Shown: positions 57,001 to 59,861 of the stretch, piece after piece | How positions within the stretch are numbered: the first letter of the stretch is position 1 | How the letters are laid out: the number at the start of each line of letters is the position of its first letter | Source of the DNA: a virus | Taxonomy: Duplodnaviria; Caudoviricetes | Reading direction: 5' to 3' (one strand) | DNA length: 64,000 nucleotides | Virus record (IMG/VR): IMGVR_UViG_3300037424_000723 | Location: 1-64,000 of that record | Notes under the pieces: generated by a model | Database searches by the model: none | What the model saw: the letters and a program-made list of their open reading frames with translations, nothing else | What the model was told of the DNA's origin: nothing | Program-made: the position numbers and the translations under genes

Positions 57001-57344
57001 TGAATCACGCCCCCGCTTATCACCGTTACCTCTACACCTGGCAATGGCGTTTCCGGCGCCGGCTGCGGCTGCTATGGGCCGGCCACAAGTGCGAGAATTG
57101 CGGCAGTCGCAAGGGCTTACAGGCGCATCACCTAACATATGAGCGCCTTTATCATGAGCGCATATCCGATTTACAAATATTGTGCGAGGTATGTCACCCG
57201 CTAGCAGATGCCCAGCGCAGGTATGACAAAGCACTTCAAACCTATTGCGTCAAGCGATGGGGGCCGATGTGGGTACAAGTTGTTAGGCCAGATGAGGCTA
57301 AGGCGGAATTTGATAAGTGGTTGACAACAAAACAGGAGCAATAG
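57000..57344 (+). CDS. HNH endonuclease
   Basis: CENCGSRKGLQAHHLTY...LQILCEVCH. Confidence 0.92.
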   Translation: MNHAPAYHRYLYTWQWRFRRRLRLLWAGHKCENCGSRKGLQAHHLTYERLYHERISDLQILCEVCHPLADAQRRYDKALQTYCVKRWGPMWVQVVRPDEAKAEFDKWLTTKQEQ

Positions 57345-57346
57345 AA

Positions 57347-57925
57347 ATGAAAACCATCCTCTCTCTTTTTGATTATTCCGGCAATTGGTCTAAGCCATAC
57401 CGGGAGGCTGGTTACAATGTCATTCAGGTAGACATCAAACTTGGTATTGATATTCTCACCTTTGATTATCAGGCCATCCCGGAAATTTACGGAATCCTGT
57501 GCGCTGTGCCTTGCACTGATTTTGCTGTAAGCGGAGCGCGTTGGTTTGCTGAAAAGGATAAGGATGGCAGAACTGAATTGAGCATTAGCCTAGTTAAAAA
57601 GTCTCTTGAGATTATCAATTACTTTAATCCGGTATTTTGGGCATTGGAAAATCCAGTAGGTAGGATAGCCAGATTAGTACCGGAGTTGGGTAAGACGAGT
57701 CTGATTTTTCAGCCATGTGATTATGGCGATGCCTATCGCAAGCGCACATGCTTATGGGGTAAATTTAATCATCCCATCAAAAACCCAGTTGAGCCATTGG
57801 GTATTCGTAAGGGTCAACCCGATGAATGGTACTCTAAAATGGGCGGCAAAAGTGAAAAGACAAAAGCTTATCGCAGTCAAACCCCGTTAAAGTTTGCACA
57901 AGCCTTTTATGAGGCAAATCAATAA
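57347..57925 (+). CDS. Dcm-like C5 cytosine methyltransferase (short phage type)
   Basis: ILSLFDYSG; VPCTDFAVSG; ALENPVG; KRTCLWG; RSQTP. Confidence 0.85.
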   Translation: MKTILSLFDYSGNWSKPYREAGYNVIQVDIKLGIDILTFDYQAIPEIYGILCAVPCTDFAVSGARWFAEKDKDGRTELSISLVKKSLEIINYFNPVFWALENPVGRIARLVPELGKTSLIFQPCDYGDAYRKRTCLWGKFNHPIKNPVEPLGIRKGQPDEWYSKMGGKSEKTKAYRSQTPLKFAQAFYEANQ

Positions 57926-57937
57926 TTCCCCCATAAC

Positions 57938-57971
57938 AAAAATAGAGCCTACTCGTTATTGAGTAGGCTCT
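57938..57971 (-). terminator. Terminator closing the antisense unit
   Basis: 11-bp AGAGCCTACTC/GAGTAGGCTCT stem with a minus-strand T-run. Confidence 0.85.
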
Positions 57972-57989
57972 CCCCAAGAAACCTAAAAC

Positions 57990-58230
57990 CTAGTGATAAA
58001 AAATTACCCCCGGTCAAGCGGGCCGGTACGCTTTTGTCACCTATAGTGGGCTAGGCTACATTAGACAATAACACGCACGTATAAAGAAATCCTCATTCTT
58101 CAACTTAAGTTTTGCCACAGTTTATTAGCCTGTCACCTCGCTTTCTTAGTTTCAAAGGTGAGCGCTTATTACTTCTGACTGTCGCCTGTTTGGGCCGTTG
58201 GTAAGTACGCTCGGTGATACGCACCTATTG
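57990..58230 (-). ncRNA. Candidate structured ncRNA (3' block)
   Basis: ORF-free; stems TCACC/GGTGA, ACAGT/ACTGT, TTGTC/GACAA, GTGCG/CGTAC. Confidence 0.45.
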
Positions 58231-58232
58231 AT

Positions 58233-58359
58233 AAACAGCGGGCCGGATTCGATTCCGGCTTGATCCTTTCACGCGATTCAGGGTTTACGTGTTCCCTCGC
58301 GTCCGTTCAGGTAGCACACGTTCCGATACCTACGATTCCTAACATCGCTGCCGCTGCTT
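58233..58359 (-). ncRNA. tRNA-like RNA (acceptor stem plus T-arm), not a canonical tRNA
   Basis: AGCAGCGG...GCCGG-AATCGAAT-CCGGC-CCGCTGTT; no D-arm, anticodon arm or CCA. Confidence 0.55.
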
Positions 58360-58363
58360 ATTC

Positions 58364-58867
58364 CTAAATATGAGACCAGGTTCTTTTACTTATTACATAG
58401 CATATAGTAACCTGGGTTACATTAAAGATAACCGATAATTCTTTTGATGTATATTTTTTATCCTGATAGAACTTTCTAATTTGCAAGACCTGCTCTGGGT
58501 TTAATTTTGCGGTAGGAGTTTTGTTTCTATTTATAAATTCTGGTATTCTTCTACCTTTTTTGATGGCATCTTGATTATTATCTTTATGAGTACCCAAGAA
58601 TAAATGAGACGGATTGATACATTTGCGATTATCACAGGTATGACAAACTAATATATCAATCGGTAAATCAATATCATTGGCTAAACTATATGCTACCCTT
58701 GAGGCAGTAATAAGATTACCGTCTACCCAAAATCTACCGTATCCTGAATTACCTACTTTTCCTTGCCATTCCCAACATTCATCAGGATTACCAATTTTTA
58801 CTTTAGACCAAAATCTATTTATTTGGTCTTTACTTAATTTAGGTATATTTCTAATTTTTAATTTCAT
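58364..58867 (-). CDS. HNH homing endonuclease (HNH_3)
   Basis: RFWSKVK...CWEWQG...ASRVAY...VCHTCDNRKCINPSHLFLGTHKDN. Confidence 0.96.
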   Translation of the reverse strand: MKLKIRNIPKLSKDQINRFWSKVKIGNPDECWEWQGKVGNSGYGRFWVDGNLITASRVAYSLANDIDLPIDILVCHTCDNRKCINPSHLFLGTHKDNNQDAIKKGRRIPEFINRNKTPTAKLNPEQVLQIRKFYQDKKYTSKELSVIFNVTQVTICYVISKRTWSHI

Positions 58868-58871
58868 TATT

Positions 58872-58975
58872 CACTTTTTAATGGGCCGGTAAATCCAATG
58901 TTTCTAGCCGACGGTTCTCTGGCGCTTTTGCGCCCTTGACATTCTGGCATAGTCGCCAGGGGATTTACCAGCCCA
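58872..58975 (-). promoter_or_regulatory. Branched hairpin immediately upstream of the HNH
   Basis: TGGGCTGGTAAATCC/GGATTTACCGGCCCA outer stem with inner CTGGCG/CGCCAG. Confidence 0.6.
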
Positions 58976-59043
58976 GTCAGCCCTTGCGGGTTGTGACCTT
59001 ATTCATAATCGTTTCAATCCACGCCCCCCGTGTGGGTTGTGAC
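58976..59043 (-). CRISPR. Solitary type I-C-like repeat, 13-nt pseudo-spacer and partial repeat (not an array)
   Basis: GTCACAACCCACACGGGGGGCGTGGATTGAAAC-GATTATGAATAAG-GTCACAACCCGCAAGGGCTGAC. Confidence 0.7.
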
Positions 59044-59241
59044 CGGACTCCAATATGAACGATGTTTTGCCGATTGCCGCCATTCAACACGAGGGCCAAA
59101 ACAATTAAAGCAGATGAATAAAAAACCCCTACTTTCACCCATGTGGCCGTAGGTTTTAATCTGTCTGCCTTCGTTGTTTTGCCCACAATTCCGGCAAACA
59201 TTTATTTGGGTTTTTTCTCGCTCATCAGTTATGACGATCAT
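59014..59241 (-). CDS. Possible 75-aa CxxC-CxxC protein whose stop codon lies inside the repeat
   Basis: AGGG RBS; CRNC...CFNC. Confidence 0.45.
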   Translation of the reverse strand: MIVITDEREKTQINVCRNCGQNNEGRQIKTYGHMGESRGFLFICFNCFGPRVEWRQSAKHRSYWSPVTTHTGGVD

Positions 59242-59329
59242 AATAACCCTGTTGTTAAACTTTGCCAGCGCATGCCGCTTAAGCGTACACTTACCCCTCA
59301 CTGGCTTGTAACCGTTTTTTAGCACTAGG

Positions 59330-59746
59330 CTGGGTACAGTACGGTCAAACCCGCCGTTATTGGTCAGTCCGGTTTATCTGATCTTATCGGAGATAACGGC
59401 CCATTGGCCCTTTCTTCACTTCCCGTTTTTCCTAATATTGCAAGGCGGCCCAGGTACGGGATAAGCGACCTGTATTTTGCCCTAACTCGGCAATACTTCC
59501 CACTTCATATCCGATGAGTTTGTGTGACACTAGGGCCATAATCATTGCGCCGATTACCCCCGGCGTTGGGGTTTGCCTCACTAAACCGTTTAGCCCATAT
59601 AGAGCCTTGCGTCTACCCGTGCGTGATTAGCACGTAGCAAGTTATCACGGTTTATGAAGCTGTTAAGTTGGCTCAATTATTGCCTGTTCTTTTCGGGCGG
59701 TCTATCAATGATGCCATTTCCCTAAAGCGGTCTAATGATTAAGCCT
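59330..59746 (-). ncRNA. Candidate ~400-nt structured ncRNA or leader
   Basis: Follows a promoter; no ORF of 60 aa or more; many hairpins. Confidence 0.5.
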
Positions 59747-59752
59747 GAAAAC

Positions 59753-59781
59753 AGTATAACCGATAATGGATTGAATTGCAA
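59753..59781 (-). promoter_or_regulatory. Promoter of the antisense unit
   Basis: TTGCAA-17-TATACT. Confidence 0.8.
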
Positions 59782-59832
59782 TACTTTTTTGATTAAGAAA
59801 ACTTAAAATTAAGCAAACTCATAAAAATATGC

Positions 59833-59861
59833 TTGCATTTTTAATTCAGGTATGTTAATAT
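59833..59861 (+). promoter_or_regulatory. Divergent rightward promoter
   Basis: TTGCAT-17-TAATAT with extended TG. Confidence 0.6.

Follow-up and report, generated by a model that had tools for sequence, protein, structure and literature searches.

A phage record from sediment carries a genuine, damaged derivative of a host type I-C CRISPR repeat, as comparison with the sequences of native arrays confirmed. This unit, R1, forms the last codons of a conserved zinc-ribbon gene and has lost the hairpin of the repeat, and a second, partial copy, R2, follows after 13 nt. In our judgement, the chances are about even that R1 is a recombination relic of a host type I-C array, which would be neutral or at most a weak, incidental decoy. 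The window, i.e., the whole stretch of DNA that was analysed, is the first 64 kb of this 77,330-base (77-kb) IMG/VR phage record, in which direct terminal repeats are present. The unit consists of the following features.

59043..59011, minus strand: R1, a 33-nt type I-C repeat-derived unit, GTCACAACCCACACGGGGGGCGTGGATTGAAAC, recognised by comparison with native repeats
59021..59011, minus strand: the 11-nt Cas5c handle of R1, TGGATTGAAAC, intact as judged from its identity to native repeats
59010..58998, minus strand: the 13 nt between R1 and R2, GATTATGAATAAG
58997..58976, minus strand: R2, the second partial copy, GTCACAACCCGCAAGGGCTGAC, which folds into a GCAA-loop hairpin

Identity of R1 and its solitary state

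To describe the native repeat, we used the arrays in loci L105-L109 and 65 metagenome loci. The repeat of these arrays is GTCGCTCCCCACACGGGGGGCGTGGATTGAAAC, which measures 33 nt and recurs about every 67 nt, the spacers in between being 33-36 nt long. R1 is equally long and agrees with this repeat at 30 of 33 positions, i.e., 90.9% along its whole length. The 3' end is identical (26/26), and the mismatches, found at positions 4, 6 and 7 only, all lie within the 5' arm GTCACAACCC, which did not occur among the repeat variants of 70 array loci (about 1,600 copies). The 26 nt of the 3' end occur exactly in CRISPR arrays of Brevefilum, Ardenticatenaceae and Acidobacteriaceae genome bins and in 65 metagenome contigs. 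Further, the array of the Brevefilum contig (L107) follows cas3-cas5c-cas8c-cas7c-cas4-cas1c-cas2, a complete type I-C operon, in the same orientation, which settles the subtype and the strand of the repeat. R1 has the form of a type I-C repeat, a unit of 32-33 nt with the ending ...G/TGGATTGAAAC, and lies within the identity range used by SRUFinder (at least 90% identity over at least 90% of a known repeat). Thus, the type I-C repeat consensus that an earlier note had recognised from the letters of the window was borne out by arrays beside a type I-C cas operon, and the comparison with repeats of candidate hosts that it had recommended led to array repeats of Chloroflexota and Acidobacteriota.

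R1 lies inside an open reading frame, which could be taken to favour a chance likeness arising from coding sequence alone. The probability of this reading is negligible and we rejected it: when the native 33-mer was searched at up to three mismatches, R1 was the one site in the window, compared with 0 matches in 100 shuffles, and an exact identity of 26 nt with real arrays is impossible from nine variable tail codons.

R1 is not part of a regularly spaced array; there is one copy in the 77-kb record, and the 14-mer GCGTGGATTGAAAC has one occurrence in the entire 77,330 bases. The 5' arm GTCACAACCC recurs at 58997..58988, where it closes the hairpin of R2, whose predicted fold is ((((...(((....))).)))). 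R1 and R2 share an exact direct repeat of 11 nt, GGTCACAACCC, at a spacing of 46 nt; when extended, the two copies match at 16 of 18 positions, and identity falls steeply past the 11-mer. The repeat, the 13-nt gap and the recurrence of the first 10 nt in a GCAA-loop hairpin had all been described in the earlier note, and each was found on the minus strand. The solitary state in a phage without cas genes was confirmed as well: searches of the 77,330-base record detected one unit and neither cas7c nor cas1, nor cas5c, for which the same search also gave no signal in control genomes. Rfam gave no family match on the whole window at gathering scores or on 57900-59850 at E up to 10. The R1-R2 region was identical in contigs of two sediment DNA runs (possibly the source of the record itself); these two were the sequencing runs that contained the R1 region, and no RNA run was among them.

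Compared with Chloroflexota arrays (Brevefilum sp. CAZCBW010000041; Ardenticatenaceae JACKBS010000010), R1 shares the length of 33 nt, the ACAC loop, the 3' arm and the handle, and R2 resembles a degenerate terminal repeat that retains the 5' half only. Unlike the repeats of these arrays, R1 stands alone inside a phage gene and carries three changes at paired positions of its 5' arm, and the phage spacer measures 13 nt instead of the native 33-36 nt. Either the 13 nt began a host spacer that arrived together with the repeat, or they are a pseudo-spacer, and a very short one. When 1,551 spacers from 70 arrays (1,000 unique; 52 in a first set) were compared with the whole phage, chance matches were obtained, the best of 16 nt, and the junction of the repeat with the 13 nt had 0 matches in metagenome contigs. 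By its sequence, the repeat is of a type that indicates Chloroflexota or Acidobacteriota; the phage itself is from sediment. R1 is an indirect host clue for a 77-kb sediment phage that could not be placed otherwise: an array with this repeat, known to date from Chloroflexota and Acidobacteriota, must have been encountered by the phage or by a donor element with which it recombined.

The zinc-ribbon gene and its transcription unit

The genes and signals around R1 are as follows.

59753..59781, minus strand: the best promoter-like site by consensus (TTGCAA, 17 nt, TATACT), upstream
59268..59240, minus strand: a weaker promoter-like site by consensus, which overlaps the start of the zinc-ribbon gene
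59241 (ATG)..59014 (TGA), minus strand: the zinc-ribbon gene, 75 aa with two CxxC pairs, identified by homologues and a profile
59091..59081, minus strand: the CGTGTTGAATG motif, 37 nt upstream of R1, in the PRVEW / GPRIxW block of the zinc-ribbon protein
59044..59091, minus strand: CGTGTTGAATG with the 37-nt segment, codons P50 to P66 of the zinc-ribbon protein
58882..58975, minus strand: the leader of the HNH gene, with a 15-bp stem (58975..58961 with 58896..58882) that encloses two small hairpins
58364..58867, minus strand: a free-standing HNH homing endonuclease gene, identified by homology, the next gene on the strand
57944..57971, minus strand: a terminator-like hairpin, which would end the antisense unit

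R1 corresponds to codons 67-75 (VTTHTGGVD) and the stop codon of the zinc-ribbon gene, the TGA of which lies within GGATTGAAAC. Thus, R1 is not intergenic but coincides with the end of a conserved gene, over its last nine codons and stop. When 1.8 billion representative proteins were searched in full with HMMER, 60 homologues emerged (best E = 1.2e-15), mostly 69-90 aa long. They form an uncharacterised family of about 70 aa with the consensus ...DER...CxNCG...GR...ESRG..FICFxCFGPRIxW...YxSP, in which C16, C19, R26, R38, C44, C47 and W54 are invariant and conservation extends to Y-x-S-P (residues 63-66), directly before R1. The AlphaFold model has a pLDDT of 89.9, with values below 50 for residues 72-75, which are encoded by R1 and modelled as disordered. 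A search of PHROGs gave one weak family without assigned function, and nothing informative was obtained from Pfam, PADLOC, PDB sequences, Foldseek against the PDB or the ESM Atlas. There was no link of the protein to known Acr or defence families and no PDB match for its model, and a word-based protein search gave no match.

It had been suggested in the earlier note that a degenerate CGTGTTGAATG lies 37 nt upstream of the repeat and that the 37 nt in between could be a normal-length guide. The letters and the position of CGTGTTGAATG were as described; however, the motif consists of conserved zinc-ribbon codons. The segment 59080..59044 in turn provides the codons for residues 55-66, in the family motif GPRIxW ... 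Y-x-S-P. Because both encode conserved residues of the zinc-ribbon protein, as seen in the 60 homologues, the motif is not a repeat and the segment is not a spacer or a guide. A 74-aa open reading frame at 58977-59201 was rejected as a gene; it had no family match, and nearly all of it overlaps the conserved zinc-ribbon frame.

R1 would be transcribed in the crRNA sense together with the zinc-ribbon gene, as suggested by the HNH leader, the HNH gene and the terminator-like hairpin downstream and the promoter-like sites upstream. The sites at 59268..59240 and 59781..59753 resemble promoters at consensus level only and are no commoner than in shuffles. A co-transcript in this sense would carry the intact Cas5c handle. 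We considered TGGGCTGGTAAAT as a degenerate handle of R2 and rejected it, as these bases belong to the 15-bp stem in the HNH leader, of which they are the 5' arm. This stem sits directly before the HNH start codon.

Some observations concern the neighbourhood. Between the best promoter-like site and the zinc-ribbon gene lie about 430 nt (59325-59750, minus strand) without a convincing open reading frame and without an Rfam match. Further, a cytosine-methylase-like gene at 57317-57925 (plus strand) has many close homologues in contigs (up to 83% identity). In three contigs fetched for such homologues (75-80% identical), the neighbouring genes were unrelated and not syntenic; the gene looks like a freely exchanged module.

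Loss of the stem and absence from relatives

The native repeat folds into an 8-bp hairpin of -15.9 kcal/mol (z -3.1). In R1, the fold has -8.6 kcal/mol (z -0.5), and an alternative pairing pulls in the start of the handle. The hairpin is lost because all three differences fall in the 5' arm of the stem; they are uncompensated, and one mismatch adjoins the stem base. Thus, the stem that had been thought to be merely weakened is abolished, and R1 does not form a stable hairpin of 7-8 bp with the Cas5c cut site at its 3' base. Cas5c recognises mostly the cut site and the handle; mutations of the stem base blocked processing by BhaCas5c, whereas loop and 5' overhang could be altered without this effect (PMC8524198). 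Since Cas5c reads mainly cut site and handle, the broken stem would reduce the odds that R1 is recognised without excluding recognition.

The same 19-nt 3' half is carried by 16 other IMG/VR contigs, in nearly all of them as a single copy. Among the distinct phage-borne solitary type I-C units with this 3' half, 11 of 13 have a stem of 7-8 bp at the cut site. R1 is an outlier among phage-borne solitary type I-C repeats in having lost the stem. The 3' half common to the 13 distinct units (L002-L017, IMG/VR) is GGGGGGCGTGGATTGAAAC. In L003, L007 and L014, the solitary repeat lies just 5' of a ribosome-binding site and start codon, and L015 carries an array of at least six repeats within a viral contig.

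The type I-C handle was absent near seven other loci of the zinc-ribbon family (L110, L112, L113, L114, L188, L190 and L191). A sibling phage contig of 1,992 nt from one sediment run joins 59262 directly to 58998 and 58976 to 58891. It lacks the following block.

58999..59261, minus strand: a 263-nt block of ribosome-binding region, zinc-ribbon gene, R1 and 12 of the 13 nt (G58998 lies outside), absent from the sibling

The sibling contig is thus without the zinc-ribbon gene and R1, yet R2 is kept, and its length leaves no room for a diverged zinc-ribbon gene together with an HNH gene. It also lacks 84 nt of the HNH leader. In run X2, the read depth was 112 for the block-carrying phage and 7 for the sibling without the block. 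The other sediment run contains a third arrangement adjoining 59262. The site around 59262 is an indel hot spot, and the 263-nt block is dispensable. The antisense unit is a patchwork of indel blocks that vary between sibling phages found together, because minor contigs differ next to 59262; in both sediment runs, such contigs skip 59307-59540 (234 nt) and have a different sequence beside 59262.

Further relatives were sought in several ways. A search of phage collections gave distant matches for the HNH and helicase genes only, and scans of viral contigs with single proteins, the methylase and the zinc-ribbon protein, gave no close relatives. The junction of the sibling had 0 matches in viral contigs. 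When the sibling was sought by homologues of HNH and methylase, the best HNH match was 47% identical and the sibling contig was not found. Judging from the available sequences, the R1 repeat is not conserved among relatives.

Origin and possible functions of R1

Solitary repeat units (SRUs) in viruses were first listed by Faure et al. 2019 (as cited in PMC10651486); 2,103 occur in viral sequences, and some are proven RNA anti-CRISPRs (PMC10651486). R1 is a further member of this documented class in phages, and the decoy trick is already known. RacrIC1, of type I-C, lies 11 nt behind acrIC5 on the same transcript (Camara-Wilpert et al. 2023, PMC10651486). Like RacrIC1 and other SRUs, R1 is a single type I-C repeat in a phage without cas genes, in sense orientation behind a small gene and with an intact handle. 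In contrast to RacrIC1, which is intergenic and has kept its secondary structure, R1 is the 3' end of the gene itself and its stem is lost. Further, unlike RacrIC1 and SRUs, it has a partial copy 13 nt away and conservation was not seen in relatives. SRUFinder accepts intergenic repeats without a partial repeat within 100 bp, whereas R1 lies in a gene and has a 16/18 partial copy 13 nt downstream; a promoter within about 250 bp upstream and expression are further criteria (PMC10651486).

Viral crRNA-like RNAs with shortened pseudo-spacers, including type I-C, have been described in a preprint, which defines a Cracr by a match of at least nine PAM-proximal positions with the promoter of cas or creT (Liu et al., bioRxiv 10.1101/2024.10.29.618823). 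The phage unit resembles Cracrs and the host CreA/CreR mini-arrays in that a short pseudo-spacer lies between two degenerate repeats, the first of which retains only its handle and the second only its hairpin half. In contrast to Cracrs, a promoter target for the 13 nt of the phage was absent from three candidate genomes and from 228 kb of CRISPR loci, and the spacer of 13 nt is below the reported medians (19 nt for viral type I-F). Thus, R1-R2 has the repeat identity of an SRU, is neither intergenic nor solitary nor structured as one, and shows the layout of a Cracr without a target found.

For the origin as a relic, we propose that a short piece of a type I-C array may have entered the phage in an array-bearing cell, by illegitimate, microhomology-guided recombination or template switching. 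What was captured would have run from the loop of one repeat through its 3' stem arm and handle and on into the first 13 nt of the spacer next to it. Its insertion site would have been the variable tail of the conserved zinc-ribbon gene, where the phage sequence resembled the 5' half of the repeat (12 of 17 positions match; about 15 such sites are estimated per 77-kb genome). In this templated insertion, 35-36 nt would have been copied from the host array and 10-11 nt duplicated at the junction. The first ten bases of R1 would be the gene's own codons V-T-T, duplicated at the junction, and GGTCACAACCC 46 nt downstream would be the old gene end, reading VTTRKG-stop. If these ten bases are the phage's own, the restriction of the differences to the 5' arm, the lost hairpin and the recurrence of GGTCACAACCC would be explained; that all three changes fall within the first 7 of 33 positions has a p of about 0.006 by our calculation. 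When joined in frame to codon 66, R2 reads VTTRKG-stop, i.e., the zinc-ribbon gene minus 46 nt ends SPVTTRKG-stop, and the homologue P0004 ends SPVTTGT-stop, with the DNA GTCACGACC at the same position. The uninterrupted ancestral gene end would be ...AGTCCGGTCACAACCCGCAAGGGCTGA in the 46-nt insertion model; it had to be deduced, because no close relative carrying an uninterrupted end was found. The relic would be tolerated in the disordered tail of the protein, and we saw no sign of selection maintaining R1.

In a variant of this origin, the trailing end of an array, i.e., the last repeat with the degenerate terminal repeat, may have been captured. Natural arrays with this repeat end in a terminal repeat that retains only about the first 14 nt, as does R2, and the five matches in the seven positions right after the 11-mer exceed expectation (p about 0.01), which argues against a plain duplication. 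Capture of an array end needs, however, a spacer cut to 13 nt and the same three changes in both copies, and we favour templated insertion as somewhat the more probable of the two. Off-target integration by Cas1-Cas2 was considered for the insert of 35-36 nt, which has the length of a spacer, and was rejected. Cas1-Cas2 integration duplicates a sequence of repeat length, and the duplication here would be 10-11 nt. As a relic, R1 is an example of how such a unit originates, from a fragment of a host array and phage coding sequence joined at a short similarity, with the junction still readable. It also cautions that a repeat carried by a phage need not be a decoy: R1 lacks the hairpin that most of the others have kept.

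Several features weigh against a relic. A working Racr would show an intact handle and 3' arm in sense orientation behind a small gene, and R2 keeps the 5' half and loses the 3' half, as do terminal repeats and crRNA-like regulatory RNAs. As for the candidate RNA anti-CRISPR of the earlier note, we regard a working inhibitor of the Racr type or the crRNA-like Cracr type as possible, though less likely. In such an inhibitor, the 3' end of the zinc-ribbon mRNA would offer the UGGAUUGAAAC handle to host Cas5c, and the 13 nt and the GCAA hairpin of R2 would replace the spacer and the 3' hairpin, giving a stunted complex with about two Cas7. Either Cas proteins would be sequestered or, if the 13 nt match a TTC-flanked promoter, cas or toxin genes would be repressed; a Cracr-type target would be TTC followed by GATTATGAA in the promoter of a cas or toxin gene. 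Perhaps the zinc-ribbon protein is an Acr encoded alongside; RacrIC1 is located behind a small acr gene (PMC10651486). What stood of the earlier proposal is the type I-C repeat, identical to native repeats at 30 of 33 positions with the handle and the cut-site side unchanged, and it gains from the probable sense orientation within a transcription unit, from the order of handle, short spacer and hairpin known from viral crlRNAs, type I-C included (10.1101/2024.10.29.618823), and from the reliance of Cas5c mostly on handle and cut site (PMC8524198). The excess of the block variant in run X2 (112 compared with 7) is only suggestive. However, several points weigh against an inhibitor: the stem is lost, with a mismatch beside its base, where mutations blocked BhaCas5c (PMC8524198); R1 is atypical among phage-borne solitary type I-C repeats and conserved in no relative; and the coding overlap or the partial copy within 100 nt would each exclude it under the SRUFinder rules as we interpret them. 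Further, the zinc-ribbon protein has no link to Acr or defence families, and neither the three candidate genomes nor the 228 kb of CRISPR loci contained a target of TTC and seed above chance. TTC with all 13 nt had no site in the 228 kb, and TTC with 10 nt had one site across the three genomes (about 0.4 expected by chance), not near cas genes. This site, in the Ardenticatenaceae genome, precedes an unannotated 405-aa gene and was rejected as a target at chance level. A more specific form, in which a stem-less type I-C inhibitor captures Cas5c via the handle alone and the zinc-ribbon protein is a new Acr, seems improbable to us; here, the 13 nt and the hairpin would cap a complex of about two Cas7 or guide a complex to a host promoter. 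If true, it would be the first Racr/Cracr pair for Chloroflexota-type systems, with the shortest known pseudo-spacer, and if R1 inhibits type I-C, the handle alone would suffice for mimicry.

Two further readings have a low probability. The R1-R2 unit lies exactly between the zinc-ribbon and HNH genes, just before the structured HNH leader, and might be a processing signal at which Cas5c or local structure cuts the antisense transcript between both genes, which would couple expression of the endonuclease to the presence of type I-C Cas proteins. We consider this very unlikely: the signal is not conserved, the stem required for cleavage is broken, and the sibling contig appears to retain an HNH-sized region without R1. 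Virus-borne mini-arrays exist, and R1 could be a one-guide mini-array against competing phages, or the old gene end could serve as a guide against insert-free siblings, in which case TTC followed by GATTATGAATAAGGTCAC would be required in a sibling phage. This is more doubtful still. A mini-array would have a full-length spacer that matches a competing virus, whereas the spacer here has 13 nt and those of native arrays have 33-36 nt. Downstream of the handle, agreement with the insert-free allele is confined to the PAM-distal part, and the guide against siblings fails because the 13-nt seed matches at 5 of 13 positions and the triplet before the target would be CCG, not TTC.
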